This document shows positions 39,443-64,000 of a stretch of DNA of 64,000 nt, in pieces (the stretch's first letter is position 1; each line of letters starts with the position of its first letter). The notes beneath the pieces were generated by a model that worked only from the letters and a program-made list of their open reading frames with translations, had not been told where the DNA came from and made no database searches. A program made the translations under genes and the position numbers. The DNA is from a phage, in sequence record PZ386961.1. One strand, 5' to 3'.

Positions 39443-40549
39443 TTAGTCTGGTTTAGCGTCAGAACGAACGTCTACCAGCAACTGAGGACGTGTGCAGTAT
39501 GGCAGCATGTAAGAGTGAGCTTCGAAGTCAATACCTTCATCACGGTCTTTTTCGTATTCGAATACGTACAGTTCCTGACCAAGTGTATTTGCGTAACCCA
39601 TCTTAGGGCATGGGCCATAAGCCACTTCGAAGATGTTGTTTGCTTCACCCAGCATAGAAACGTTAGGGAAAGCGTGTCCTACACCAACCTCTGCACCAGC
39701 ACCATCAATGCTCACCAGAGTATGAACCTTACCACGCTTGTCTTTGAACTTACCGTTGTACTGGACAAACTTAACACCACCGTAGTAGAAAGTGTTCATG
39801 TGAGCCTGAACGCCGTCAGTACCACCAGTTCTCAGAGAACCAGTAATCTGTTGCCAAGCCAGCGGAGTCTGCTGTGCAAGATAAGCGTCACGAATCTTAG
39901 GGTGTTTAACCAGTTTGCTGAAGAATAAGCGGTCAACAACTACGTGAATTTCTTCACCGTTGATTACAGTGCCAGTCTTAGCTTCATCTTCCATGTGCAT
40001 ACGCAGTTCTTCAATAGCAGCGTCAATGTCAGCATTAGGGTTGTCAAGGTCGAAGTAAACAGTCTTCTTCTCAACGTCGAACTGCTTGTACAGGTCAGCA
40101 TACAGAGTACCACGAGCATCAACAACTTTACCCTTCAGAGCTTGCATAAACAGGAACTCACGAGTAATATCGAACTTGGTACGAATCTTCATCAGCTTCT
40201 TAGCACGTACTACAGCTTCAGTAGTCAGTTCGTTTGCAGTGCCTGGCTGACGTACACCCTGAATTTCATCAGGAGTAATGCTTTCAACTTCTTTGAAGTA
40301 CATCATTGGGAAGCTGATTTGACGAACACGCTCAGGTGCGCTAGTCTCTGCTTTACGGCTATCACGGTCTACCGCATCAAGCAAGCTAACATCCCAATCA
40401 GTCAAGTCCATAAGGAAAGTAGTTTGGGTGATTGGTGCTGAACGGAACAGACCTAAGTTGGAAATATACCCATAAGTATTTGGGATAGACTGGACTTCAC
40501 CAGTCAGGTCAGCAAGGAAAAATCTGCTTTTTTCAGAATTAGTCAACAT
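39443..40549 (-). CDS. major capsid protein
   Basis: 368 aa, position after protease-scaffold and decoration genes (lambda C-Nu3-D-E order). Confidence 0.7.
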   Translation of the reverse strand: MLTNSEKSRFFLADLTGEVQSIPNTYGYISNLGLFRSAPITQTTFLMDLTDWDVSLLDAVDRDSRKAETSAPERVRQISFPMMYFKEVESITPDEIQGVRQPGTANELTTEAVVRAKKLMKIRTKFDITREFLFMQALKGKVVDARGTLYADLYKQFDVEKKTVYFDLDNPNADIDAAIEELRMHMEDEAKTGTVINGEEIHVVVDRLFFSKLVKHPKIRDAYLAQQTPLAWQQITGSLRTGGTDGVQAHMNTFYYGGVKFVQYNGKFKDKRGKVHTLVSIDGAGAEVGVGHAFPNVSMLGEANNIFEVAYGPCPKMGYANTLGQELYVFEYEKDRDEGIDFEAHSYMLPYCTRPQLLVDVRSDAKPD

Positions 40550-46690: not shown

Positions 46691-46766
46691 TGGAGAATCC
46701 GAAGGGACTCGAACCCTTATAAACCTGTTTTGCAGACAGGCACATAGCCATTTCTGTCACGGATTC
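46691..46766 (-). tRNA. tRNA-Cys (anticodon GCA)
   Basis: Manual fold: acceptor gaatccg/cggattc, loop ctGCAaa, T-loop ttcgagt, discriminator U, encoded CCA. Confidence 0.75.
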
Positions 46767-46770
46767 AAAT

Positions 46771-46863
46771 TGGAGGAAGATACCAGACTTGAACTGGTAC
46801 ACCGATTTCTCAGCTACTGGCAGTTTAGCAAACTGCTCCCTTACCTTTTAGGGTTAATCTTCC
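46771..46863 (-). tRNA. tRNA-Ser (anticodon GCU), class II
   Basis: Manual fold: acceptor ggaagat/atcttcc, loop ttGCTaa, long variable arm, about 90 nt. Confidence 0.7.
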
Positions 46864-46865
46864 AT

Positions 46866-47600
46866 TTATTTCTGTAATGCGTTCTTCATTTCTGGTGTTG
46901 CAATAGTGTCAATTACACCAGTTTTACAAGCATCATCAAACCAGTCTGGTAAGATACCTGCTAAGAACCCATTGATATTCGTTTTAAGGTACTCTGCAAT
47001 AAGAGCAGCTTCTTCTTCAATCATCTGCACAACTTCATCTGCATAAGCTGTAATCTTTGAGATACCTTCATTAATCTTACTAACAGCTTGGTTAGCTAAA
47101 TCAGAAATAGTATCAAGACCTTTGTCAATAGCGTCTTGTAAGTCACTTAACACACCATTAACACCGTCTAGTGCACTGTTAATCGTATCAATAGCTTTTT
47201 GACCATACTCTGTAGCAACACCCATAATACCACTAAATGGTGTACAGCCAACTTGTTCACCTGCTGCACCCATAACATTAGAGTAACCTTTTGCTACCTG
47301 CATACGTGATGAAAACTCATCAATGGACTTTTGACCGTAATCTGTTAGTGTTTTGGTGGTTGATGTAGTGCTTGTCAGACTCGTGGTAAAGCTGTTAAGC
47401 AGAACTGTTGTAAGTCCAGCAGCAACAAGCTTATCCTTTACTGTAGGGTCTGATACAGAGCTAATAGAGCTTACAAGTGATGTAGAGGCAGCTACGGTTC
47501 CACCGAGAACTGCTGCACCAGTAATAAGGGGGTTAGAAAACCCTTTACCTGTTTTTAAGAGATTGAAAATCTCCTTACCTTGTTCTGTCATCTCTTTCAT
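46866..47600 (-). CDS. hypothetical Ser/Thr-rich protein embedded in tRNA cluster
   Basis: Start moved to ATG 47598-47600 because the track start (GTG 47663) overlaps a tRNA. Confidence 0.45.
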   Translation of the reverse strand: MKEMTEQGKEIFNLLKTGKGFSNPLITGAAVLGGTVAASTSLVSSISSVSDPTVKDKLVAAGLTTVLLNSFTTSLTSTTSTTKTLTDYGQKSIDEFSSRMQVAKGYSNVMGAAGEQVGCTPFSGIMGVATEYGQKAIDTINSALDGVNGVLSDLQDAIDKGLDTISDLANQAVSKINEGISKITAYADEVVQMIEEEAALIAEYLKTNINGFLAGILPDWFDDACKTGVIDTIATPEMKNALQK

Positions 47601-47616
47601 TAAGCACCTTTGAAAT

Positions 47617-47693
47617 TGGTAGTCCAGTGGGATTTGAACCCTCTTCTCATGTTTTTCAGACACGCGCTTTAACCATATAAGCTACTTGGACTA
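47617..47693 (-). tRNA. tRNA-Phe (anticodon GAA), non-canonical D-arm junction
   Basis: Manual fold: acceptor tagtcca/tggacta, loop ctGAAaa; extra nucleotides between acceptor and D-stem. Confidence 0.45.
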
Positions 47694-47698
47694 TAAAT

Positions 47699-47774
47699 TG
47701 GGGTGACCTACGGGATTTGAACCCGTATAGACCATGTTCACAGCATGGGTCATTACCATTTATGATAAGGCCAC
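47699..47774 (-). tRNA. tRNA-His (anticodon GUG)
   Basis: Manual fold: loop ctGTGaa, discriminator C, T-stem acggg/cccgt. Confidence 0.7.
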
Positions 47775-47805
47775 ATTTAAGGACTCTCGTAAGAATCCTT
47801 AGAAG

Positions 47806-47881
47806 TGGCAGCGGCATAAGGATTTGAACCTTAATAGGACAGCTTCAGAGACTGCTGCATTGCCAGTTATGCTATACCGCT
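47806..47881 (-). tRNA. tRNA-Gln (anticodon CUG)
   Basis: Manual fold: loop ctCTGaa, discriminator G, D-stem gcat/atgc. Confidence 0.65.
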
Positions 47882-47886
47882 AAATT

Positions 47887-47965
47887 TGGTACTCCATATC
47901 GGATTCGAACCGATACATAACACAGATTTTAAGTCTGGCCTCTCTGCCAATTGGAGTAATGGAGC
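47887..47965 (-). tRNA. class-I-like tRNA with leucine anticodon UAA (putative tRNA-Leu without long variable arm)
   Basis: Manual fold: loop ctTAAaa, discriminator A, T-loop ttcgaat, D-loop ccaattggcagag shared with the 48947 and 49526 tRNAs. Confidence 0.45.
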
Positions 47966-47967
47966 AT

Positions 47968-48043
47968 TGGCGGGGGATGTTGGAATTGAACCAACTTCTT
48001 CGATTTCAAAGACCGAGGTTTTAACCTTGTAAACTAATCCCCT
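47968..48043 (-). tRNA. tRNA-Gln (anticodon UUG)
   Basis: Manual fold: loop ctTTGaa, discriminator G, unpaired 1-72. Confidence 0.65.
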
Positions 48044-48051
48044 TTAAATCT

Positions 48052-48609
48052 TTACTTTCTCAGTGGATGAATAAAGAATGCCAACATAACTCTTTCCCTT
48101 GAGAATGCTCTTTCTTCTGGGACAACACTTTTAAGTTTCCATCCAACATAAATTCTCCAGTAAAACTGTTTACCGAAGACTTTAATTGATGGGATAAAAG
48201 CGAATAATCCCCAAGCATTACTGTTCCACATTAGGAGATAACCAGTCTGATTATCTTCAGGGTTAGAACTTACGTTGATATTACCTTTCCACTTAGTAAC
48301 ATCTCTTACATCTCTTCCTAATACATGGTAAGAGAAGTTATAAGCTTTGTTTCTCCAGAGCCATCCGACTCTTTGCATGTAGACACCTAGTTTACCAATC
48401 CATCTAATATTAGCCCATCTTTTAACGTGACCTTCATCACCATCAATTGGGTTGTCATATGTCTCCATCCATCTGAACCCGAAAGGTAAGTGTCCTTTCT
48501 TCTCACTGTAGAATGGAACTACAAAAGGTGCTAAGATAACTGCTAAGATTGCTGCAAATGGCTCTAACAAAGCTAAGAAAATCCATGAAGCATACTTTAA
48601 GTATCTCAT
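48052..48609 (-). CDS. hypothetical Trp-rich membrane protein embedded in tRNA cluster
   Basis: 185 aa, N-terminal hydrophobic helices. Confidence 0.5.
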   Translation of the reverse strand: MRYLKYASWIFLALLEPFAAILAVILAPFVVPFYSEKKGHLPFGFRWMETYDNPIDGDEGHVKRWANIRWIGKLGVYMQRVGWLWRNKAYNFSYHVLGRDVRDVTKWKGNINVSSNPEDNQTGYLLMWNSNAWGLFAFIPSIKVFGKQFYWRIYVGWKLKSVVPEERAFSRERVMLAFFIHPLRK

Positions 48610-48848
48610 TGTCTAATCCTCGTAAGGAGGTAAATGTTATTATTCGTTTCTAAACCTTCTGGTAAAACTGTCTCAAAAATAACACTCTTCAGATGTCTAC
48701 CACCAAAACAATCACGTATAAATCTTTCTACTCTAGCGTGGTCACATAAGTATCCCACTTTTAAGAAAATGTGGTGTTCAACACCAATGACCCTGACAAA
48801 CTCAATACTCTCACAGTTTTCATGTTCAACTACTGTTAATGTTTGCAT
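48606..48848 (-). CDS. hypothetical protein embedded in tRNA cluster
   Basis: 80 aa, ATGA coupling with downstream gene. Confidence 0.45.
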   Translation of the reverse strand: MQTLTVVEHENCESIEFVRVIGVEHHIFLKVGYLCDHARVERFIRDCFGGRHLKSVIFETVLPEGLETNNNIYLLTRIRQ

Positions 48849-48865
48849 AGTATCACCTTTTTATC

Positions 48866-48941
48866 TGGCGCAGGATAAGGGATTCGAACCCCTATTAACA
48901 GCTTCGTAGACTGTTGCTCTTTCCATTTGAACTAATCCTGC
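48866..48941 (-). tRNA. tRNA-Arg (anticodon ACG)
   Basis: Manual fold: acceptor gcaggat/atcctgc, loop ctACGaa. Confidence 0.7.
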
Positions 48942-48946
48942 AAAAT

Positions 48947-49024
48947 TGGTGTTCCAAGACGGATTCGAACCGTCACTAATACAAGGTTTGAGCTTGCATC
49001 CTCTGCCAATTGGGATACTGGAAC
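48947..49024 (-). tRNA. class-I-like tRNA with leucine anticodon CAA (putative tRNA-Leu without long variable arm)
   Basis: Manual fold: loop ctCAAac, discriminator A, paralogous D-arm to the 47887 and 49526 tRNAs. Confidence 0.45.
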
Positions 49025-49025
49025 A

Positions 49026-49100
49026 TGGTACTCACTAAAGGACTTGAACCTTTTTCTTCATCTTGTAAAGGTGATGTTTTACCATATAAACTAAGCGAGT
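49026..49100 (-). tRNA. tRNA-Val (anticodon UAC)
   Basis: Manual fold: loop ttTACaa, D-stem gttt/aaac, discriminator A. Confidence 0.65.
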
Positions 49101-49196
49101 ATGAAAGAGGTCTGAAGTTGTGCCGCTAACTCAACTTCGTGGAATTTGTTACGGTCTTCAGTTGACTCAAAGCGGTCTTTCACTTGACCTCTGAAT
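49101..49196 (-). other. structured non-tRNA spacer inside tRNA cluster
   Basis: Nested inverted repeats agaggtc...gacctct and gaagttg...caacttc; no T-arm. Confidence 0.3.
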
Positions 49197-49273
49197 TGGT
49201 GCTGCTCACAGGACTCGAACCTGCATTTCCATCCTTACAAGGGATGTGTAATAGCCAATTATACGAAAGCAGC
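49197..49273 (-). tRNA. tRNA-Thr (anticodon UGU)
   Basis: Manual fold: stem catcc/ggatg, loop ctTGTaa. Confidence 0.7.
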
Positions 49274-49279
49274 ATTGTT

Positions 49280-49354
49280 TGGAGCATCCAGAGGGAATCG
49301 AACCCTCAACCTCAGTTTGGAAGACTGTAATTTTCCCGTTTAAACTATGGATGC
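49280..49354 (-). tRNA. tRNA-Gly (anticodon UCC)
   Basis: Manual fold: loop ctTCCaa, discriminator U. Confidence 0.65.
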
Positions 49355-49360
49355 ACTAAT

Positions 49361-49436
49361 TGGTGGAGAAGCAGGGAATTGAACCCTGTACTTAAGTTTG
49401 CAAAACTTATGTTTTAACCATGTAAACTACATCCCC
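49361..49436 (-). tRNA. tRNA-Ala (anticodon UGC)
   Basis: Manual fold: loop ttTGCaa, G3-U70 wobble pair, discriminator A. Confidence 0.75.
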
Positions 49437-49442
49437 ATTGTT

Positions 49443-49518
49443 TGGTACAGGTGGAGGGAATTGAACCCATCGTCTTACTGATTAAGAGTCAGCCGCATAA
49501 CCATTTTGCTACACCTGC
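49443..49518 (-). tRNA. tRNA-Lys (anticodon CUU)
   Basis: Manual fold: loop ctCTTaa, discriminator A; imperfect T-stem shared with the 50741 paralog. Confidence 0.55.
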
Positions 49519-49525
49519 ATTAATT

Positions 49526-49602
49526 TGGTACACCTAGAGAGATTCGAACTCACACTGAGCAGATTCTAAGTCTGCTGCCTCTACCAGTTGGGCTATAGGT
49601 GC
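49526..49602 (-). tRNA. class-I-like tRNA with leucine anticodon UAG (putative tRNA-Leu without long variable arm)
   Basis: Manual fold: perfect stem gcaga/tctgc, loop ctTAGaa, discriminator A, about 74 nt. Confidence 0.5.
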
Positions 49603-49858
49603 ATTAAATCTTTTTAGAGAACTTCTAAGAACCTGAGCAACAAGGTTCCACAACAAGCGACTAATAACCTTAGAAGCCCTCTAAAAAGACCTAAATAGGT
49701 CTTTGCATAGTCTTGTTTAATCCGGTGACTAGAACCTTTGGAGAGCTTGATATTATCTCTTCTCCGTGACACCTACTAGGTGCTTTGACAGTGCACGACA
49801 ATACACGAGGGATAAACCGACAATGCGAACAAGCATGGACGGAGTAAATCTTATTAGG

Positions 49859-49946
49859 CGGTAAGTAAAGGAGTCGAACCCTCACCGTATCTCTACAGTG
49901 GCAACTGTTTTCAAGACAGTTTGGCTACCATTAGCCGCTACCTACC
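49859..49946 (-). tRNA. tRNA-Ser (anticodon UGA), class II
   Basis: Manual fold: loop ctTGAaa, long variable arm, 3-bp D-stem, discriminator G, CCA not encoded. Confidence 0.65.
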
Positions 49947-49959
49947 CCTAATAAGACTT

Positions 49960-50042
49960 TGGCATGGGACGGAGGAGTTGAACCCCTTTGAAACGGTGTT
50001 GGAAGCCGTTGCTCATGCCTTAGAGTCTTAACATCGTCCCAT
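49960..50042 (-). tRNA. tRNA-Trp-like (anticodon CCA), non-canonical (about 8 extra nt between acceptor and D-stem)
   Basis: Perfect acceptor atgggac/gtcccat, stem aacgg/ccgtt with ttCCAac loop, D-region too long for standard fold. Confidence 0.35.
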
Positions 50043-50184
50043 ACTATAATTCGAAGCTTACCGTATTATCTCAACACTGTAAAGCCCCTTCTCAGATTAT
50101 TTACATGTTCTGGAAAACATGAGATACAGACCACCTCCCTACAGGAAGACCCGCTTAGGTCGTCTAAGTAATCTGCTAACTATT

Positions 50185-50261
50185 TGGCACACCCTACAGG
50201 ATTCGAACCTGTAACTCAATGATTAGAAGTCATTTGCTCTGTCCAGTTGAACTAAGGGTGC
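50185..50261 (-). tRNA. tRNA-Arg (anticodon UCU)
   Basis: Manual fold: stem aatga/tcatt, loop ctTCTaa. Confidence 0.7.
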
Positions 50262-50463
50262 ATTAATCTTTAAAGACTCTCTTAGAAAGCCCTTAAAGAT
50301 GCCCACCTTATTAATCATACCGTGGGCGAGTACGCCAAATTCTTTGATGAGGGATTGGAAGACCTCACTGGTGTTTAGCCTATCAAGCTACTGCCAGAAA
50401 AACATTGTCGTTTGCATTTATTTTAAATTTGCAAAATAGACGCTACGCAACGAAAACTAAGGT

Positions 50464-50492
50464 TACTATAAAGTAGTCACATCTCAATGTCA
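50464..50492 (-). promoter_or_regulatory. sigma70-like promoter TTGACA-N17-TATAGT inside tRNA cluster
   Basis: Minus-strand hexamers read directly; faces tRNA-Arg(UCU) and downstream tRNAs. Confidence 0.5.
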
Positions 50493-50507
50493 ACAACTTT
50501 ATTGAAA

Positions 50508-50583
50508 TTGGTACTGGTAGGTGGAATCGAACCACCGATGTTCCCTTATCAGGGGAGTGTTATAACCTTCTTAACTATACCAG
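50508..50583 (-). tRNA. tRNA-Ile (anticodon GAU)
   Basis: Manual fold: loop ctGATaa, D-stem gtta/taac, discriminator A. Confidence 0.7.
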
Positions 50584-50584
50584 C

Positions 50585-50661
50585 TTGGAGGTTCAGATGG
50601 GAATCGAACCCACATTCATAGGGCTTATGAGACCCTTGCATTACCTTATCTGCGACTGAAC
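50585..50661 (-). tRNA. tRNA-Met (anticodon CAU)
   Basis: Manual fold: acceptor ggttcag/ctgaacc, loop ctCATaa. Confidence 0.6.
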
Positions 50662-50740
50662 CAGAATAAGTACCCTAGTTAGAGAAACTGTTGAGTGGGT
50701 GTTTCCAGCCGCGCAGGTGTTTCTCAGTTAAGGGTGAATT

Positions 50741-50816
50741 TGGTAGAAGTGGAGGGATTCGAACCCATCGCCTGTCAGATTAAAAGTCTGCCGCATCACC
50801 ATTCTGCTACACTTCC
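50741..50816 (-). tRNA. tRNA-Lys (anticodon UUU)
   Basis: Manual fold: loop ctTTTaa; sequence paralog of the 49443 tRNA. Confidence 0.55.
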
Positions 50817-50820
50817 ATTA

Positions 50821-50963
50821 AATTATCTTTGTAGATAAGCTACCCAGACTTGCTTAAGGTCTGTAGCGATGTGCCTTTTGGGTTTAAATCTAGAATTTAC
50901 CCTTTCACCCTTTGTGGTCGCATACTCACAGGTAAGCTTAATAACTTATCTACAAAGATAATT
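50821..50963. repeat. 19-bp perfect inverted repeat (aattatctttgtagataag / cttatctacaaagataatt) enclosing about 105 nt
   Basis: Both arms read directly at 50821-50839 and 50945-50963. Confidence 0.6.
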
Positions 50964-51017
50964 ACCAGACCGTTGTTTATCATCTTAAGTGCTACCATTA
51001 CACCAACTCGACATCTG

Positions 51018-51050
51018 CCGAGTGAAGGAATCGAACCTTCGCCTTTTCTT
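51018..51050 (-). other. isolated tRNA T-arm-like module (gaagg-ttcgatt-ccttc) followed by hairpin actcg/cgagt; tRNA fragment or tRNA-like ncRNA
   Basis: No matching 5' acceptor strand nearby. Confidence 0.3.
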
Positions 51051-51243
51051 TACCGGAGAAATAGATTGTTTAAAGTTTGCTGTAAACGGTCTTCTGTAAA
51101 TTTGTTGAGCCAGACCAAGTTTTAAATTTTCAAAATTAAATTGGCTTGAAATTTCATACATTCTTGCTGTATTTGGTCTTCTGCTCCTTTAAAGAATACT
51201 CGTAAGAACTCTTTAAGGGAGGGGCTAAATAGCCCTCTCAAAA

Positions 51244-51321
51244 TTGGCGGTTACGAAGGGATTTGAACCCTCATCATCTCCCGTGACAGGGGAGTATTTT
51301 AACCAAATTAAACTACATAAC
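51244..51321 (-). tRNA. tRNA-Asp (anticodon GUC)
   Basis: Manual fold: stem ctccc/gggag, loop ctGTCac, discriminator G. Confidence 0.7.
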
Positions 51322-51326
51322 CTTTA

Positions 51327-51414
51327 TTGGTGTGCCGTGTAGGAGTCGAACCTACCGAGTCTCAATGACAAGGGATTTACAGTCCCCACCGCTACCATCT
51401 ACGGGATAACGACA
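51327..51414 (-). tRNA. tRNA-Tyr (anticodon GUA), class II
   Basis: Manual fold: loop ctGTAaa, long variable arm, discriminator A. Confidence 0.65.
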
Positions 51415-51424
51415 CATTTAAATT

Positions 51425-51501
51425 TGGCGGTTAGTCAGGGATTCGAACCCTGTGCCATTCGCTTAACAGGCGACCGCACATACCTTATGTGCTTCCTAAC
51501 C
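51425..51501 (-). tRNA. tRNA-Asn (anticodon GUU)
   Basis: Manual fold: loop ctGTTaa, discriminator G. Confidence 0.65.
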
Positions 51502-51584
51502 ATGTTTAGTATTACCAGACCGTATCTTTCAATTTTTCCGCTAAAAATTTAATAAGTATTGCTGTAAACGGTCTTCTGTAAATT

Positions 51585-51660
51585 TGGAGGCGGGTGCAGG
51601 AGTCGAACCTGCCGATACCATGCTAATGAGACATGTGAGACGCCCTTTCTCTATACCCGC
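51585..51660 (-). tRNA. tRNA with CAU anticodon (initiator Met or Ile2-type)
   Basis: Manual fold: loop ctCATta, unpaired 1-72, D-stem gaga/tctc. Confidence 0.5.
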
Positions 51661-51752
51661 AATTCTTAATGACCAGACCAAATCTCTTCTTTGTCCGATT
51701 TACCTTCAGATGAATAAGATTAAGTTTGCTGTAATTGGTCTTCTGTCAAAAC

Positions 51753-51830
51753 TGGCGTTCCAGAAGGGATTTGAACCCTCAAATATCCACTTTGAAAGAG
51801 TGGTGACTTTACCATTTTGTCCACTGGAAC
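51753..51830 (-). tRNA. tRNA-Glu (anticodon UUC)
   Basis: Manual fold: stem ccact/agtgg, loop ctTTCaa, discriminator G. Confidence 0.7.
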
Positions 51831-51837
51831 ATTAATT

Positions 51838-51914
51838 TGGTCTCTGTTGGAGGACTTGAACCTCCGGCCTTACCGCCCCAAACGGAACGCTCTACCAAGC
51901 TGAGCTAAACAGAG
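51838..51914 (-). tRNA. tRNA-Pro (anticodon UGG)
   Basis: Manual fold: acceptor ctctgtt/aacagag, D-stem gctc/gagc, loop ttTGGgg. Confidence 0.65.
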
Positions 51915-52079: not shown

Positions 52080-53495
52080 TTACCAGATATAACGGTCAAT
52101 CATTACTGCTTTGAGCATTACACTGATTGGGTCAAACTTCTCACCACCAAGCAGAGCTTTTAAAGTGGCTGGAGAGAACCCTGATACCATTGCTACACCG
52201 TTATCCTTAATAGATACTTCGCAAGTGCCATTACGGTTTGCTAAGTACCAGAATACCAGTTGTGGCATCTCATATCCAGATTTTTCGTACTTATCTCGAA
52301 TTGCTTCAAAGTTTGTACGACCATTAGCACCATCAACCTGATTAAACTCCATATCAGAGAAGATAATAAGCTTACTTGGCATATCTTTCTGAGTCAAGTT
52401 GTTTCTTTTACCTGTTTCAAGAATGCGGTCAAAAGCTGCTTGTAAGTTAGTTGAGCCATATTCAACGTGTCGCATCACCTGACGATGACGGTTTCGTAAA
52501 TCACCACTCAGTTCGATGAAGTGAGGGTTTGTCGAATAAACCATCAACTCATTCTTAAAGCAACCTGTATTGCGTTCTGCTACATACAAGGCAAGTGATA
52601 CACCAATATCCAGAGCAGTAATGGAGCCAAAATTCACCCAAGACATTGAACTTGATACATCAGACATACACAAGATGTTTTCACCTTCTGCCATCCAGTT
52701 TGGTAGTGCTTTCCACTGCTCATTAGCAACATCTGCATTACCATACTTGACAGATTTAATCACATCGTATGGGTAAACAGCACCAGCGTTAATCTTAGTC
52801 TCACCTTTTGATAAGGACTCGATGTAAGCTTTGTAACGCTCTCCATCTTTACGGTTAAACAGTTTTTGGTAACGTGCAGCAGCAAGTGAAGGAATCTTAC
52901 TGTAGTCAATCTTACCAAACTCATTAGCAGAGATTTTTTGCTCAACTGTATCAGATAGTGCAGACAACAGTGTGCGGTACTCTTTCTCACTCAAGTTGGC
53001 AAACTTGCAGAAACGTTTTACAAACTGCTTATGACGTGGTTTGACTCGTGGTAACCACTTAGCCGCCAAACCTGCTGTTGCAGGGTCTAGTAATGCTGCT
53101 TCTAAATGCTTGAAGGCATCTGTCTCGAAACGAGTACCTACAAAGATTTTGAAGTCATCAAAACGACCAAGTTCTGCAATCTTATCCATAATGCGAAGAA
53201 CCTGCGTAGGCTCTAAAACTTTATCTTCAATTGCTTGAAGCAAAACAGTTCTGAAGGCTTTACGCTCACCCATACCTTCTCGTACATCTCGCATATGAAG
53301 CAAAATACGAACTGCAACATCAACATCCTCACGCAAAGCTTTGTAGAACAAGTCTGGTAAGATTTCTACATTGCTACGGCTTGAACCAGCAGCTTTGTAA
53401 AAGTCTACAAGAGCAGACATTGATGAAGTATGGTTTACAGCACCATTTTCAGTTCGACCTGCATGAAGGTGCGCATGTTTAAATAATTCGCTCAT
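52080..53495 (-). CDS. vWA-domain protein with helical N-terminal domain (Ro60/TROVE-like or DUF2828-like)
   Basis: C-terminal MIDAS motif in ILCMSDVSSSMSW (DxSxS) and downstream IIFSDMEF; N-terminal about 270 aa helical. Confidence 0.5.
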   Translation of the reverse strand: MSELFKHAHLHAGRTENGAVNHTSSMSALVDFYKAAGSSRSNVEILPDLFYKALREDVDVAVRILLHMRDVREGMGERKAFRTVLLQAIEDKVLEPTQVLRIMDKIAELGRFDDFKIFVGTRFETDAFKHLEAALLDPATAGLAAKWLPRVKPRHKQFVKRFCKFANLSEKEYRTLLSALSDTVEQKISANEFGKIDYSKIPSLAAARYQKLFNRKDGERYKAYIESLSKGETKINAGAVYPYDVIKSVKYGNADVANEQWKALPNWMAEGENILCMSDVSSSMSWVNFGSITALDIGVSLALYVAERNTGCFKNELMVYSTNPHFIELSGDLRNRHRQVMRHVEYGSTNLQAAFDRILETGKRNNLTQKDMPSKLIIFSDMEFNQVDGANGRTNFEAIRDKYEKSGYEMPQLVFWYLANRNGTCEVSIKDNGVAMVSGFSPATLKALLGGEKFDPISVMLKAVMIDRYIW

Positions 53496-55158: not shown

Positions 55159-55321
55159 GTGTAAACAGGGGCTAACGCCCCTTTATCTATTTATAAGGAT
55201 ATTTAATGAAGGCTAAGAGTGCAAAGACTTTTATTGCTTCCTACAATCCTATATCCTCTCCGTGGAGAATGGTGAAAAATACAATCTTAACGATGTTATT
55301 TCATCACCTTTAACATGGAGA

Positions 55322-55576
55322 ATGAGTAGATGGCCTGAAGAGGATATTACACCAACTGCCGAGCAACCTACCTATAACCCAGACATTAAACTCCCAGATT
55401 CAGATAAGTTATTATACCCAATGTTCCACATTGTTGGGCTTGGTACGTTTCTTATGGATATCCAGTATGTAATTGGTAAGGGTTATAAAGTTGAAGGTAT
55501 TGTTGTTGGTGATGTGTCTCCACAACATAAAGGCTATTTCAGATTAAACGCACGTTTAGAGGCTAAAAAGAAATGA
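55322..55576 (+). CDS. hypothetical protein, paralog of the N-terminal domain of the Ig-like repeat protein
   Basis: Start at ATG 55322 after GGAG; WPEEDI...DSDKLLY...FLMDIQYVI..LNARLEAKK aligns with N-terminus of 55573..56709. Confidence 0.45.
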   Translation: MSRWPEEDITPTAEQPTYNPDIKLPDSDKLLYPMFHIVGLGTFLMDIQYVIGKGYKVEGIVVGDVSPQHKGYFRLNARLEAKKK

Positions 55577-56709
55577 TTAAAGCAAAGACTTACCCAGACT
55601 TCAAAGAGTTTGTAAAGGGCTTCGTTGCAAATGTAAAGGCTGGTAAGAGATATGATTTTAGAACATATCAAGAGGCTATTTTGCCACTTACTTATAGTTC
55701 GTATTGGCCTGAAGCTGATATTGCAGAAGTTGAAGAGTTTGACTACAAACCAGCCTATAAAGTCCCATTTAGTGATGAGTTGCTTTACAGCATCGGTGCT
55801 CAAATGAGAACTTCTGATTTCTTCATGGATTTGCAATATGCAATTATCAATGGTAAAGACGTTGATACTGTTTATTGTGAATGGTTGGCAAGAGTTAAAC
55901 CATTCTCAATGTTAAATGCTAAGTTAAAGGATGCTATCAAACCACCATCAATCACTCAGCAACCAACCAATCAAACAGTAAATGAAGGTGGTGCATTTAC
56001 CTTAAGTATTGTTGCAGTTAATGCCACAGGGTATCAGTGGAAGAAGGGTGGTGAAGATATCACTAGTGCTACCTCTGCAACTTACACAAAACAGTCAGTG
56101 GTTCCTTCTGACGCTGGTTCATATACCTGTGTTGTATCTGGGGGGGGTGGGACAAGTGTCACATCAGATGCAGCAACAGTTACTGTGAATGCCTTACCAG
56201 TGATTACCAAGCAACCTTCTAATCAGACCGTTAATGAAGGTGGAAACATCAGCTTAGCAGTTACTGCAACAGGTGCAACTGGTTACCAATGGAAGAAAGA
56301 TGGTTCCGACATCCCTTCAGCTACAAAGGCCACATATAGCAAATCTGGTGCACTTCCAGCAGATGCTGGCTCATACACTTGCGTTGTAACAGGTGCTGGA
56401 GGTTCGGTTACTTCTAACCCTGCAACTATCACAGTAAACGCACTACCAGTGATTACTCAGCAACCAACAAATCAAGAAATCACAGAAGGTGAAACCTTGA
56501 CACTAAGTGTTGTAGCTACTGGTGCAACAGGCTATCAGTGGAAGAAAGATAACGTAAACATTCCTAGTGCAACTGCTGCAACTTACACCAAAGAAAGTGC
56601 AACGAGTGCAGATGATACTGGTTCATACACTTGTGTAGTTACTGGTGCAGGAGGTTCAGTAACCTCTAATGCCGCAACAGTTACTGTTAATCCAGTAGGA
56701 GGTGAATAA
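55573..56709 (+). CDS. Ig-like (I-set/Big-type) repeat protein
   Basis: Three tandem ~90-aa repeats with QPxNQTVNEGG...GATGYQWKK...SATxATYTK...AGSYTCVV; contains a G8 homopolymer at 56140-56147. Confidence 0.6.
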   Translation: MIKAKTYPDFKEFVKGFVANVKAGKRYDFRTYQEAILPLTYSSYWPEADIAEVEEFDYKPAYKVPFSDELLYSIGAQMRTSDFFMDLQYAIINGKDVDTVYCEWLARVKPFSMLNAKLKDAIKPPSITQQPTNQTVNEGGAFTLSIVAVNATGYQWKKGGEDITSATSATYTKQSVVPSDAGSYTCVVSGGGGTSVTSDAATVTVNALPVITKQPSNQTVNEGGNISLAVTATGATGYQWKKDGSDIPSATKATYSKSGALPADAGSYTCVVTGAGGSVTSNPATITVNALPVITQQPTNQEITEGETLTLSVVATGATGYQWKKDNVNIPSATAATYTKESATSADDTGSYTCVVTGAGGSVTSNAATVTVNPVGGE

Positions 56710-57173
56710 TGCAACTATCAAAGAAGGGTCTAGAGGCTATTAAATTCTTTGAAGGTCTTGAGTTAGAAGCCTACAAAGATTCTGCCGGAATCCCAACAAT
56801 TGGTTACGGGACAATCTGTATTGATGGAAGACCTGTCAAAATGGGTATGAAGATTACTGAGGAACAGGCTGAACAGTATCTTCTTGCTGATGTTGAAAAG
56901 TTTGTCAGTGCAGTCAACAAAGCAATCAAAACCCCAACCACTCAAAATGAGTTTGATGCCCTTGTTAGTGAAACATACAACATCGGTATCACGGCTATGC
57001 AGGACTCTACATTTATCAAGCGCCACAACGCTGGTAATAAGGTAGGTTGTGCAGAAGCTATGCAGTGGTGGAACAAGGTAACGGTCAAAGGTGAGAAGGT
57101 CACTTCAAACGGTCTTAAAAACAGACGCAGAATGGAAGCTGATATTTACCTTGACAGTGTATACCCAAAGTAA
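56709..57173 (+). CDS. lysozyme (endolysin, GH24-like)
   Basis: N-terminal FEGLELEAYKDSAGIPTIGYG signature. Confidence 0.85.
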   Translation: MQLSKKGLEAIKFFEGLELEAYKDSAGIPTIGYGTICIDGRPVKMGMKITEEQAEQYLLADVEKFVSAVNKAIKTPTTQNEFDALVSETYNIGITAMQDSTFIKRHNAGNKVGCAEAMQWWNKVTVKGEKVTSNGLKNRRRMEADIYLDSVYPK

Positions 57174-57182
57174 TATCTTCAT

Positions 57183-57210
57183 AGGCTCCTTCGGGAGCCT
57201 TTTTTATTTT
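57183..57210 (+). terminator. rho-independent terminator (aggctcc-ttcg-ggagcct plus T-run)
   Basis: GC hairpin with ttcg loop and tttttatttt just after lysozyme stop. Confidence 0.65.
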
Positions 57211-60382: not shown

Positions 60383-60805
60383 ATGAAAGAGCTTATTGGT
60401 AAAAGATTGACAGTTTACTGCTCTAAAACAAAGAAACCACTTACTTCTGTGAAGGTCTTTGATGTTGACACCACTGGTGTAGAGTACCCAATCCAATGCA
60501 CAATAATTACTCCATTCCATGCAGATGATATGGATTTTAAAGAGTGTGAAGTGATATCTTTTAATGCTGATGGGTATTGGAGAGGTAAGTTAAACAAGCA
60601 ATCAGAAGATTTTGATATGCAAATCCTTATCAATGAAGGCTATATTGGTGTAAAAGATATCCTCGTAGAAGCCTATGAAGAAGGTATAATTGATATTGTG
60701 CATGATGTTGAAAAAGCTTTAAAGCTTGTTATGCCGCATTTAGAATCTGGAAAGCTGACTTTAGAGATGCTTAATAGGATTATTCGGAGAGCTTATGAAA
60801 ATTAA
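60383..60805 (+). CDS. hypothetical protein
   Basis: 140 aa. Confidence 0.5.
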   Translation: MKELIGKRLTVYCSKTKKPLTSVKVFDVDTTGVEYPIQCTIITPFHADDMDFKECEVISFNADGYWRGKLNKQSEDFDMQILINEGYIGVKDILVEAYEEGIIDIVHDVEKALKLVMPHLESGKLTLEMLNRIIRRAYEN

Positions 60806-61259
60806 AGAAGTAGTGCAAAGAGCAATGCTTGACAATTCTACTAAAGATGAGATGTACACAGAAATTTGTGATAAGTTGAACTGCTCAAGACATGCTGCTA
60901 AGGTTCTTGTACATTGTTTTATTTGGGAATGCTCAGAAGCCTATATGAAACACGTAGCTTTTGAGAGTTCTCATTTACTCGGTGATGTAAAAATAGGTGT
61001 AGCACTAAAAGAGCCTGAGATGAAAACAGTACCTAAGGTCGGTAATGTGTATAAACTAAAAAATTTTATTACAGGCGAGATTGTTGCAGAAGGTGAAGTG
61101 CAACAGGTTTATCATGATGGTAAATATCTGTTTAAGATATTCGAGTATGATAGTCGTTACAGACACTTATGTGGTATTACATTTTTAGTTTCAGAGGATG
61201 ACCTCATCAAGAACAATAGTAATAAATTCGCAGTACCAGAATATCAAGTTTTACGATAA
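60795..61259 (+). CDS. hypothetical protein
   Basis: 154 aa. Confidence 0.5.
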   Translation: MKIKEVVQRAMLDNSTKDEMYTEICDKLNCSRHAAKVLVHCFIWECSEAYMKHVAFESSHLLGDVKIGVALKEPEMKTVPKVGNVYKLKNFITGEIVAEGEVQQVYHDGKYLFKIFEYDSRYRHLCGITFLVSEDDLIKNNSNKFAVPEYQVLR

Positions 61260-61272
61260 TGGTGTGATAGAT

Positions 61273-61821
61273 ATGGAAAAAGATAACTTAAAAGATGTTG
61301 AAGGTAACTATCTAGTCCTTGACTGGAAGGATGTTCGGGAAGCACTCTCTGAAGAAAATCTTGACTGGTTCGAACAAATTATCTTTGCAGTACGGCATAA
61401 CCGAGAAGTTGAAAATGGTAAAGAGCCACTTGAAGGAATATTTGTAGAGAAGTCTTATCCGTTCTATGAAGACACTTTGCAGAAAGTTAAAATGTACTTT
61501 AAACAGAAGAACCGTAAAGTGGTCACTATGGTATCTCTTGGTGGACAGAGTATGTCTGTGATGGAAGATATCAACCCTAAGAGACCGAGTAAAGGCGTTT
61601 GTATAAAAATCACAGGTCATGAAGAGTATATCTCAGTAGATGACTTTAGAGCATTCTGTAGTGGTTCTTGTGTCTTTAATGGTTTTCACTATGATATCCG
61701 AGTGTACCCAATCAAGGGAGATGATATCATGATGCAGGTATTCGATAATAACAATGGATTTACTCATTTTTATCAGACAACCAAGTCATCATTGAAAACA
61801 GTTCTGGAAACACTGATTTAA
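61273..61821 (+). CDS. hypothetical protein
   Basis: Start at internal ATG 61273; 182 aa. Confidence 0.45.
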   Translation: MEKDNLKDVEGNYLVLDWKDVREALSEENLDWFEQIIFAVRHNREVENGKEPLEGIFVEKSYPFYEDTLQKVKMYFKQKNRKVVTMVSLGGQSMSVMEDINPKRPSKGVCIKITGHEEYISVDDFRAFCSGSCVFNGFHYDIRVYPIKGDDIMMQVFDNNNGFTHFYQTTKSSLKTVLETLI

Positions 61822-61832
61822 AATATCTTAAG

Positions 61833-61860
61833 AGCCTCCTTAATCGGGGGCTTTTTAATT
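61833..61860 (+). terminator. rho-independent terminator-like hairpin plus T5
   Basis: agcctcc...gggggct stem (one G-U) followed by ttttt after last plus-strand gene. Confidence 0.45.
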
Positions 61861-63393
61861 TTTATAAAATTTATCGGTTGTCCCAACCGCTGGGTCACCA
61901 TCATATGTGAATAAAATATCTACCCTTCTTAACAACCTTCTTAATCTTACTCTCTATATAGTTATATAGTACTATATAGTATCTTAGTATCTATCTAGTG
62001 GTCTTAATAGCCCCTCTGTATAGCCCTTCTAAACACTCTTCTAACAAGCCTTCTTAACAACCTATACAATCACCTTAACCATCTCTCTATACGCTCTTAG
62101 AAGCCTCTATACACCTCTTAATCTCTAGGTAAGCTATGTTACCCTCTATAGGTGTTCACTAGGAAATACTAAACCTCTATATAGACTGTTTTAACAAACT
62201 TAACAGGAATATCTTTACAGACCTTATCTCACAAGGTCTAACACGGTACTAACAAGGTATCTTATAAGCCTGTTTATGCCTGTATTTTTAAAAGACTGTA
62301 TAGGTAATTATTCAGATTTTTAAAATTTTTATAAAATAGGACTATCAAGTCATTTTTTAGGGTCTTTGAAGGAACTCAAAAATATCTGTAGAAGATGTAT
62401 ATCTGCTTGGTAGCCCTTAACATCCCTGTAACATCCCCTTTGCAGAATTTTAAAGTATCCTTAACAATCTCTTAACAACTCTCTCAAGTTCTTAACATCT
62501 CTTCAGAGGTCTTAACAGATTCTTAACAGAACTAACAAGGTTGTAACAAGTTCTTAACAGTTGATACATGGGCTTTACAGAATCTTAACAGATGACTAAC
62601 AAGAGCTAACAAGTTAATTTTAAAGAGTTATTTTGTTAAGATAATTAACAAGTTTCTAACAAGTGTTTAATCTTTTTAACAAGCTATTAACATGGTCACT
62701 ACTCTTTTCTTATCGTTCCCTTTGCTTCTTAGTGATTCTTTAAACATACCTCTTAAAAGCTCTCTATAGCTCCTTGTAAGCTCTTTTAAGCCTCTTCCTA
62801 GTATTTACCCCTCAACTGTATGGATAGCTCTTTATAGGGCTTTACAGAGGCTTTTAAGGATATGCCAAAGACTCTTACAAGGCTTTTACGTGGTCTTAAC
62901 AGAGATTTAACAAGGGGCTAACAAGTCTCTAACAAGCATAACTATGTAGGGTTTGTTAAGAAATTGTTAAGGGGGCTAGCATTTACGTAACTTTTAAGCT
63001 ACTTTCTAAGTAACTTTAAAGCCCCTATAACATACTTTTTAGTGACTATCAAGGGGGTTGTTTAGTTATTCACAAGATACTAATCAGCCTATAAGCTTAC
63101 ACCCTTATAAGATTCTTTTAAGGCTCTGGGAAGCTCTATAAAGGGCTTTTTAGAGTGGGTTAATATGATTGCTTAAGTTAGGTTGATAAGGCTGTTATAG
63201 AGCTTTATAGAGCGTTTTAGTGGTTGCCCTTCCCTTTCGGGTTATGGGCTTTTATTTAAGTTGATTTGATAAGAGGTTATAGAGTAGACTATAGAGTTAT
63301 TGCTTTTAAGGTACGGGATAGATTCTATCGAATTAGTGGGATAGATTCTGGAAAGGGAAGGGAAAGGGTTGTATAGAGGCTATTACAGAGACG
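61861..63393. repeat. 1.5 kb repeat-dense non-coding region (CTTAACAG/CTAACAAG iterons, CTCTATAG and TATATAGT repeats, palindromes)
   Basis: No ORF of 60 aa or more; many short direct repeats read directly. Confidence 0.6.
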
Positions 63394-63443
63394 TAAAAAA
63401 GCCCCTATGAGATAGATTCTATCGAATCAATATAAAGGGGCTG
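63394..63443 (-). terminator. rho-independent terminator (agcccct...aggggct plus T6) with palindromic loop GATTCtatcGAATC
   Basis: Minus-strand stem followed by T-run downstream of 63481..63729. Confidence 0.5.
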
Positions 63444-63480
63444 TAAAGGTATCTGGGGCTAAATAGCCCCGTTGCGTCGA

Positions 63481-63729
63481 TTAGTTGTAACCTTGTTTGC
63501 TGTAGTACAGAGAGATAATCAAGTCACCCCAATAATGGTAGTGAGATTCCTCGTTTATGGCTTCTTTTACAGCGTCCTTCCAAAAGTCATCGGTAGGGCT
63601 ATAATCTGGTATCACCTGCTGAATCAGCATTTTGATAAGGTCAAAGGTATTGTCTGTTCCACCGATATCGAATTTTGCATCAAGTTGGTGGCAGCCATAA
63701 GCATTAACAGTTACGCGGATAGTTGACAT
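63481..63729 (-). CDS. hypothetical protein
   Basis: 82-aa minus-strand ORF followed by terminator; preferred over overlapping plus-strand ORF. Confidence 0.45.
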   Translation of the reverse strand: MSTIRVTVNAYGCHQLDAKFDIGGTDNTFDLIKMLIQQVIPDYSPTDDFWKDAVKEAINEESHYHYWGDLIISLYYSKQGYN

Positions 63730-63796
63730 AATTTAGATTCTCCAGTTTAGGACTTTACTTAGTGGGAAGGTTAATCCCTCCCCGTTGATTAGTAAT

Positions 63797-64000
63797 TTAC
63801 TGCATGTTGGCGTAGGTTGCAAGTCTTTTTTCGTTGTATTTTGTCAGAATCTCACAAGATAATACATCGTACTTTGTAATAGCGTTGCCTTTGTCGAGGT
63901 CAAAAAAGCCAAATGTTTTACCATCTTTGAATCCGACAACTTCATAAGATTCTTTGACGATTTCACCATTGAACAAATCGCTTTCGATACGGTGAAATAA
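63797..64000 (-). CDS. hypothetical protein (partial; N-terminus beyond window end)
   Basis: Own translation: frame open from position 64000 to stop at 63797-63799, ends ...KRLATYANMQ. Confidence 0.4.
   Translation of the reverse strand, partial: LFHRIESDLFNGEIVKESYEVVGFKDGKTFGFFDLDKGNAITKYDVLSCEILTKYNEKRLATYANMQ

Follow-up and report, generated by a model that had tools for sequence, protein, structure and literature searches.

Background

Among phages of the Felix O1 type, a capsid decoration protein has been solved by cryo-electron microscopy (cryo-EM) in two cases, namely Hex-Dec of Bas63 (PMC12609058) and gp20 of Sf14 (PMC11821841), in both with one copy per asymmetric unit. In the present work, we consider a locus of this kind in the phage sequence record PZ386961.1, of which a stretch of 64,000 nucleotides (hereafter the window) was analysed; a preliminary description, made from the sequence, had drawn attention to positions 55322-56709, where it noticed a protein with Ig-like repeats, a run of eight G (G8) inside the gene and an upstream open reading frame (ORF) resembling the N-terminal part of the protein. 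Our analysis suggests that the locus would be a three-gene late cassette, consisting of a stand-alone paralog of the Hex-Dec capsid-binding domain (CapBD; gp37-type), Hex-Dec itself (gp36 / Sf14 gp20-type) and an endolysin. We hold it as quite probable that this is a Felix O1-type late cassette with a known Hex-Dec, in which G8 is an accident and the paralog is dispensable and frameshifted.

The structural studies provide the frame in which such a locus has to be read. On the T=9 capsid with its 80 hexamers, the homologs occupy 60, that is, those at the facet edges and adjacent to the pentamers, and both papers see no density on the remaining hexamers (PMC12609058, PMC11821841), while the Ig domains are flexible and were not resolved. 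Two arginines of Hex-Dec, R79 and R107, form salt bridges to Asp221 of the major capsid protein (MCP) (PMC11821841). According to the authors of the Bas63 study, one to four Ig domains are encoded across the Felixounavirus species, and the widespread label 'tail protein' is a mis-annotation (PMC12609058). Moreover, virion proteomes contain the homologs, as gp20 in Sf14 (PMC11821841) and as gp36, at 44% coverage, in Felix O1.

A Hex-Dec gene with three Ig domains

A 1.7-kb query across the locus matched 219 phage records, nearly all of them Felixounavirus, the closest being Escherichia phage vB_EcoM-Pr103Blw (hereafter Pr103Blw) with 96.9% identity. Judged by sequence, the window is that of a Felixounavirus, i.e. 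a Felix O1-like myophage. The ORF at 55573-56709 encodes 378 amino acids (aa), and the three Ig-like repeats assigned to it by the preliminary description are recovered as three stretches matching Pfam Ig_3, Ig_2 and I-set (aa 124-189, 209-288 and about 291-372). In a phmmer search against the PDB, the whole protein matches 9NCF_S, the Hex-Dec of Bas63, with E 1.1e-255, and chain S of 9C2D/9C3A, the gp20 of Sf14, with E 2.9e-170; with aa 1-123 alone, E is 7e-78 for 9NCF_S and 7e-69 for 9C2D_S.

The homology to Bas63 Hex-Dec and Sf14 gp20 (and also to Felix O1 gp36) is thus of full length, with a CapBD about 96% and 90% identical to the former two, respectively. The same CapBD with R79 (AGA, 55807-55809) and R107 (AGA, 55891-55893) is followed by I-set Ig repeats, and the gene lies directly 5' of the endolysin as in the solved cases. 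The differences are in the number of Ig domains, which is three in the window, four in Bas63 and two in Felix O1, and in a unique change of E to G which makes G8 in the F-G turn of the first Ig domain (Ig1). By this homology the ORF is a Hoc-like capsid decoration protein of the Hex-Dec / Sf14 gp20 type; it adds a new allele to a protein family of which structures have already been solved and the decoration role published. In fact, the role of surface decoration or adhesion factor proposed in the preliminary description has been demonstrated in close homologs, by cryo-EM as well as by mass spectrometry of virions, and virion association, on which that proposal had hinged, holds for Sf14 gp20 and Felix O1 gp36.

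As a monomer, Hex-Dec would place its 123-aa CapBD, which is acidic (isoelectric point, pI, 5.5), in the middle of every pentamer-proximal (quasi-3-fold) hexamer, 60 in all; the 20 true-3-fold hexamers would stay empty of it, and the three Ig domains would stick out from the capsid, forming an acidic and flexible fibre. From the example of T4 Hoc, we infer that this fibre may let particles adhere weakly to surfaces or mucus, or may control their aggregation. T4 Hoc is likewise a monomeric decoration at the hexamer centres, dispensable, with a proposed role in adherence or aggregation. On the other hand, the capsid-binding domain of Hoc is C-terminal and that of Hex-Dec N-terminal; CapBD is larger, topologically distinct and pseudo-C2-symmetric (PMC12609058), Hex-Dec decorates only a subset of hexamers, and the homology to Hoc is restricted to the Ig region, with the Hoc-like PHROG matches (phrog_2973, phrog_4069) limited to aa 121-372. 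Since the domain order is reversed and the Hoc-like matches fall only in the Ig region, Hex-Dec is Hoc-like in its working and not a member of the Hoc family. A similar comparison can be made with pb10 of T5 (PDB 5LXK, 8ZVI), which matches aa 216-374 of our protein, i.e. the Ig region, with E about 1e-11, but has a single Ig domain and a capsid-binding domain without detectable similarity to CapBD.

The Ig part is also where the family varies. Among 28 loci, the Hex-Dec lengths are 210, 294, 372-378 and 461 aa, corresponding to one to four Ig domains, and in the isolated phage Z31 the protein is shortened to 134 aa, leaving CapBD only. For example in the single species Felixounavirus felixO1, FO1a has a Hex-Dec of 211 aa with one Ig domain and Felix O1 one of 294 aa with two, which suggests that whole Ig modules come and go within very short evolutionary times. 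From these comparisons, the diversification of Hex-Dec would really consist in the gain and loss of whole Ig modules, from one to four. The three Ig domains in the window are mutually 66-70% identical in protein and 61-69% in DNA, exact nucleotide matches between the repeats (55942-56691) are no longer than 14 nt, and Tandem Repeats Finder did not detect the repeats at the DNA level. With such a low DNA identity and such short exact matches, recent gene conversion is not evident, and homologous recombination between the repeats would be limited.

Hex-Dec lies outside the structural module, the MCP counterpart being at 39446-40549, about 15 kb away, and its synteny with the endolysin is the same in Pr103Blw, DE17, Sf14, VpaE1 and Felix O1. 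The stop codon of the paralog and the start of Hex-Dec overlap as ATGA, and the stop of Hex-Dec and the start of the endolysin as TAATG, so that the cassette genes would be coupled via overlapping stop and start codons, with terminator-like hairpins on both sides. The hairpin equivalent to the upstream one, at 55167-55182, is listed in Felix O1 as a rho-independent terminator (PMC3185647 Table 2). The features of the cassette are as follows.

55167-55182, plus strand: terminator-like GC hairpin with a T-rich tail behind it, located between a 196-aa ORF and the paralog; 5' boundary of the cassette
55195-55199, plus strand: Shine-Dalgarno (SD) sequence AAGGA for the paralog start at 55206, conserved in all relatives
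55206-55313, plus strand: authentic paralog start, now opening a 35-codon out-of-frame ORF, MKAKSAKTFIASYN...HHL*, owing to a 1-nt deletion
55223-55225, plus strand: run of three A (A3), site of the frameshift at codon 7 of the paralog; four A (A4) in all relatives but one lineage
55223-55576, plus strand: body of the paralog, residues 7-123 and stop (Felix O1 gp37 / Sf14 gp21 / phrog_4463)
55573-56709, plus strand: Hex-Dec ORF, 378 aa
55573-55941, plus strand: putative CapBD of Hex-Dec, aa 1-123, by sequence match to 9NCF_S and 9C2D_S
55942-56193, plus strand: Ig-like domain 1, aa 124-207
56140-56147, plus strand: G8 homopolymer, codons GGG GGG GGT in S-G-G-G-G-T, F-G turn of Ig1
56194-56442, plus strand: Ig-like domain 2, aa 208-290
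56443-56709, plus strand: Ig-like domain 3, aa 291-373, then a 5-aa tail and stop
56709-57173, plus strand: endolysin (Phage_lysozyme, GH24), third gene of the cassette
57183-57200, plus strand: terminator-like hairpin and T tract, 3' end of the cassette

A stand-alone duplicate of the capsid-binding domain

By its match to phrog_4463 (E 3e-73), the upstream ORF falls into a family whose proteins are 123 aa long. Its uncharacterised members, such as Felix O1 gp37 and Sf14 gp21 (FDI99_gp021), stand at the same position with the same ATGA overlap, the copy in the window differing by its frameshift. The paralogy with the N-terminus of Hex-Dec proposed in the preliminary description is supported by BLASTP (33% identity, E 2e-16), and phrog_4463 and phrog_3995 cross-match; but the match extends over about 114-119 aa and not over the approximately 85 aa first given, which indicates that the whole CapBD of about 120 aa has been duplicated. 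Moreover, the ATG at 55322, from which the ORF had been read, is internal. Wherever an intact copy was present among the relatives checked, the paralog begins at the counterpart of the ATG at 55206, preceded by AAGGA, and its stop overlaps the start of Hex-Dec as ATGA in 26 of the 26 loci where both genes were found. The upstream ORF is thus a duplicate as had been said, though its start was misjudged and a deletion of A4 to A3 near that start was overlooked.

By tblastn, 233 of the 253 Ounavirinae records contain the paralog, Felix O1, Sf14, SUSP2 and Mordin among them, and the other 20 have the CapBD of Hex-Dec only. Three paralog-less genomes were examined, namely mio, Z31 and an IMG/VR contig, and they have in common a paralog remnant of about 150 nt, located about 190 nt upstream of the Hex-Dec start, in which the start is destroyed and an internal deletion has occurred while the 3' end with the SD sequence of Hex-Dec is kept. 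In the Kolesnikvirus phages of Erwinia, gp009, a protein of CapBD plus Big_2, and the endolysin are found, and no paralog. The homolog in Erwinia phage M7 of this genus (2001-2621) is distant and has CapBD fused to a Big_2-type domain in place of I-set Ig domains. The lack of the paralog in Kolesnikvirus implies, as far as sequences can tell, that the CapBD duplication would be later than the Kolesnikvirus split, or that the paralog was lost there. Probably, the part of Hex-Dec at its 5' end that codes for CapBD was duplicated in tandem to give the paralog, before Felixounavirus, Mooglevirus and Suspvirus separated. The domain itself is rare, as an exhaustive profile search of 1.84 billion representatives found it in only 12 clusters at 50% identity, two of them stand-alone and most others with CapBD fused to Ig, Big_2 or low-complexity tails.

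The ratio of nonsynonymous to synonymous substitution rates (dN/dS) is 0.12 for the paralog, 0.045 for CapBD and 0.12 for Ig1, and by this measure purifying selection acts on the paralog. Expression of genes 36 (Hex-Dec) and 37 (paralog) of Felix O1, a numbering which we confirmed on FO1a, is maximal at 60 min together with the structural genes. At the position of R79, the aligned paralogs have an invariant Gly, and at that of R107 Gln is found in nearly all of them, with a few His and a single Arg. With a pI of 7.8, the paralog is slightly basic. The AlphaFold2 model of the paralog is poor, with a predicted local distance difference test (pLDDT) of 58 from a shallow alignment of 23 sequences. 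With this weak model, Foldseek nevertheless gave 9c2d_S as the top PDB match (E 3.6e-3, probability 1.00, template modelling (TM) score 0.52) and as the sole one of high probability, the next best having E about 1. Taken with the alignments, this suggests that the paralog shares the CapBD fold with Hex-Dec and does not share the anchoring contacts.

What the paralog does at the capsid can be approached from the virion data. The 17 virion proteins reported for Felix O1 do not include gp37, although proteins of 9.7 and 11.7 kDa were detected; its virion status is known from Felix O1 as the single source, the Sf14 supplement being without gp21. Neither of the two cryo-EM papers mentions the paralog gene or recognises the paralogy of CapBD (PMC12609058, PMC11821841). 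Most likely, the product is not a stoichiometric component of the virion and is without the anchoring contacts of Hex-Dec. There is a rather unlikely alternative, in which the paralog is a capsid component or a regulator of decoration, filling the 20 true-3-fold hexamers with low visibility, or transiently capping hexamers or proheads, and in the latter version such capping would set the occupancy of Hex-Dec at 60 of 80. It agrees with the common fold family, with the late co-transcription and the translational coupling with Hex-Dec, with the purifying selection, with the contrast in pI (7.8 against 5.5 for CapBD) and with the residue changes, which concern exactly the two positions that, according to the Sf14 study, fit only the quasi-3-fold hexamers. 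It is at odds with the empty hexamers in two cryo-EM studies, with the absence from the Felix O1 virion list in which smaller proteins do appear, and with the viability of phages without an intact copy, which make up about 8% of the records besides the window itself. Returning to the interpretation that we prefer, the paralog is a conserved duplicate of CapBD, unstudied until now, and it is a real, selected, late-expressed and dispensable gene.

The paralog is frameshifted in this genome

Where the relatives have GCAAAAGAC with A4, the window has GCAAAGAC with A3, i.e. a 1-nt deletion causing a frameshift at codon 7. As a consequence, the ATG at 55206 opens a dead-end ORF of 35 codons, while residues 7-123 are in another frame. 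The paralog frame is kept in 29 of the 29 relatives compared, and A4 is present in 19 of 19 IMG/VR contigs; in the window, no intact paralog frame runs from the conserved ATG. We also compared the coding sequences (CDSs) of Pr103Blw with the window, and found counterparts for 81 of the 83 expected there, the remaining two being small ORFs without a match. All counterparts run in a single frame from residue 1 or 2 with the paralog as the sole exception, which argues for a Felix O1-like window and a clean assembly.

It is therefore necessary to ask whether the deletion is real, and the same doubt applies to G8. Miscalls next to homopolymers and 1-nt deletions within them are typical sequencing error types. 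G8 and A3 are both singletons in comparison with about 250 related genomes and lie less than 1 kb apart, so the phage might truly carry GGGGAGGG and an intact gene of the gp37 type, with one or both of the anomalies being errors of sequencing or consensus. We regard this as improbable: an assembly with one frame break among the CDS counterparts is not error-ridden, and the other isolated 1-nt indels relative to Pr103Blw, when their positions are mapped onto its annotation, apparently fall between genes. A4 is also too short to be a common site of Illumina errors. Moreover, a phage that diverges by about 10% carries just this A3 allele in two independent Logan assemblies (ERR11774199, ERR11774264), in which the paralog is called as a 104-aa ORF started by GTG. 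Other damaged alleles of the paralog can be found in the database as well, namely an 88-aa form, deletions of 9 and 12 aa, and a frameshifted N-terminus. Because the paralog is the sole broken CDS, because A3 recurs in the Logan assemblies and because other damaged alleles exist, we think that the A3 deletion is real and the gene dispensable.

In this genome, the paralog is thus knocked out, or strongly knocked down. Two ways of residual expression were considered. Re-initiation at GTG 55262 or at ATG 55322 was rejected, as neither has a usable SD sequence. A slip by -1 of tRNA-Lys at GCA_AAG would restore the exact wild-type paralog, which we count as a minor possibility; a heptameric slippery site is absent there, and less -1 slippage is to be expected at A_AAG with the cognate tRNA-Lys(CUU) being encoded by the phage. 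This tRNA gene is at 49443-49518 on the minus strand, and a tRNA-Lys(UUU) gene, likewise phage-encoded, is at 50741-50816.

The G8 tract as a probable recent accident

Poly-G tracts in Campylobacter phages are homopolymer contingency loci. In T2 and T4, runs of at least 6 nt, for example the A-runs of T2 agt and T4 rIIA, have been described as reversible hot spots of indels, with about 7e-4 at agt (preprint 10.1101/2025.10.21.683753). The G8 tract, which is found at 56140-56147 exactly where the preliminary description had placed it, resembles these loci as an in-frame coding homopolymer long enough to slip, in which a change by ±1 truncates a non-essential protein. In fact, a tract of seven G (G7) would give a protein of 204 aa and one of nine (G9) a protein of 216 aa, in both cases keeping CapBD and losing the G strand of Ig1 together with Ig2 and Ig3. 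By analogy to the unstable T2 and T4 runs, G8 is probably a slippage-prone local hot spot of indels. In contrast to them, it is neither conserved nor accompanied by observed length variants, and it sits in a genome depleted of long runs.

This depletion is considerable. G8 is the only homopolymer of at least 7 nt in the 64 kb, the next longest G run being 5 and the longest A or T run 6. Runs of A7 or T7 are completely absent while 45 ± 10 are expected from dinucleotide shuffles, which suggests that slippage-prone tracts are selected against in this phage lineage and makes the single G8 conspicuous. For G8 or C8, one is seen where 0.08 is expected, and 5 of 100 dinucleotide shuffles contain at least one.

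The comparison with relatives shows how the tract would have arisen. Most of them have TCT GGA GAG GGT/GCT GGA/GGG (S-G-E-G/A-G) at the same site; Pr103Blw has GGG GAG GGT GGG and the window GGG GGG GGT GGG. The equivalent turns of Ig2 and Ig3 read TGAGGS with the codons GGT, GCT and GGA. In every relative examined (23 aligned loci) the tract is interrupted, as GGAGAGGG or GGGGAGGG. From the ancestral GGAGAGGG, a synonymous change of GGA to GGG, common to Pr103Blw, and then a change of GAG to GGG (E to G) would have been sufficient, two point substitutions in the Gly-rich F-G turn of Ig1 joining short G runs into G8. Neither G8 nor a length variant of it occurs in the 23 aligned loci, in the 219 phage records or in 10 phage records matching a 111-nt query; an exact search of IMG/VR did not find G8, and a metagenome scan with a pattern of variable tract length gave two matches, both GGAGAGGC, with no G8 and no length variant. 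Likewise, G7 is absent from 40 related loci, among which the complete Pr103Blw genome was counted. No other record contains the identical 378-aa protein, so that there are no independent assemblies to be checked for variants in tract length.

The idea of an adaptive contingency locus has to be judged on these data. In such a scenario, slippage at G8 would toggle the phage between 'hairy' virions with the full Ig fibre and 'bald' ones with a CapBD stub, as a form of bet-hedging. The tract is, at 8 nt, longer than the simple sequence repeats (SSRs) of at least 6 nt that act as contingency loci in T2 and T4 (10.1101/2025.10.21.683753), it is the sole long run in a genome otherwise without such runs, both the +1 and the -1 product would retain CapBD, and shortened Hex-Dec proteins are viable in nature, as seen from the 134 aa of Z31 and the forms with one Ig domain. 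Nevertheless, no relative has the tract and no length polymorphism appears in anything searched; two point substitutions account for it, the exact protein is recorded nowhere else, and the variation across the genus proceeds by indels of whole domains instead. We consider such a switch very unlikely. The earlier claim of a truncating slip hence holds in its arithmetic and as a plausible hot spot, and fails as a maintained switch, the tract being unique to this genome. A contingency locus is recognised by a tract that is kept and varies in length, and neither is seen among the relatives. In a genome that removes long runs, G8 looks like a recent and probably transient accident, or, with less likelihood, a consensus error, and the phase-variation idea appears, on present comparisons, physically possible and evolutionarily unsupported.

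Several points weigh against our interpretation of the locus as a whole. The capsid location and the function of Hex-Dec are transferred from homologs which are 90-98% identical in CapBD, and the adhesive role of the Hoc-like type is itself only a proposal in the literature. Even a young G run of 8 nt may slip at a rate that matters for the phenotype, and G8 and the A3 allele could each be an assembly error. As for the paralog, its absence from virions comes from one shotgun proteome of 2010 with a 25% coverage cut-off, and the cryo-EM maps are icosahedrally averaged, so that twenty paralog copies on the 3-fold axes could have been missed.

Surroundings of the cassette

Some further features of the window were noted. 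A cluster of 26 tRNA genes, to which both tRNA-Lys genes belong, is located at 46691-51914. Adjoining this cluster and divergent from the decoration cassette, a gene at 52080-53495 on the minus strand encodes a 471-aa DUF2828/vWFA protein, annotated in Sf14 as 'RNA-binding protein'. At the far end, positions 60650-64000 align to both ends of the linear Pr103Blw record (2384-17 and 88421-86864), which indicates that the window crosses the genome terminus and terminal-repeat region of the reference arrangement.

Implications

The reading of the 378-aa protein as a tail protein, given in most GenBank records and in PHROG 3995 as 'tail protein' or 'major tail protein', can be dismissed with near certainty, as this label derives from Ig-domain similarity only, is called a mis-annotation by the Bas63 authors, and is already refuted for homologs by the cryo-EM localisation on capsid hexamers. 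For annotation, this means that Hex-Dec should be named as capsid decoration, and the 'hypothetical' or 'tail' protein upstream of it as a duplicate of CapBD. Felix O1-type phages are in use for diagnostics and biocontrol of Salmonella and E. coli, and Hex-Dec is an obvious scaffold for display, comparable to Hoc. G8 is at most a convenient test case of homopolymer instability in a genome that avoids runs. More specifically for the biology of this family, a paralog that consists of CapBD only, minus the two anchoring arginines, may offer a clue to the restriction of Hex-Dec to 60 of the 80 hexamers. If the paralog is indeed a partner of Hex-Dec, the A3 alleles and the deletion lineage of mio and Z31 would be natural knock-outs with an altered capsid decoration.

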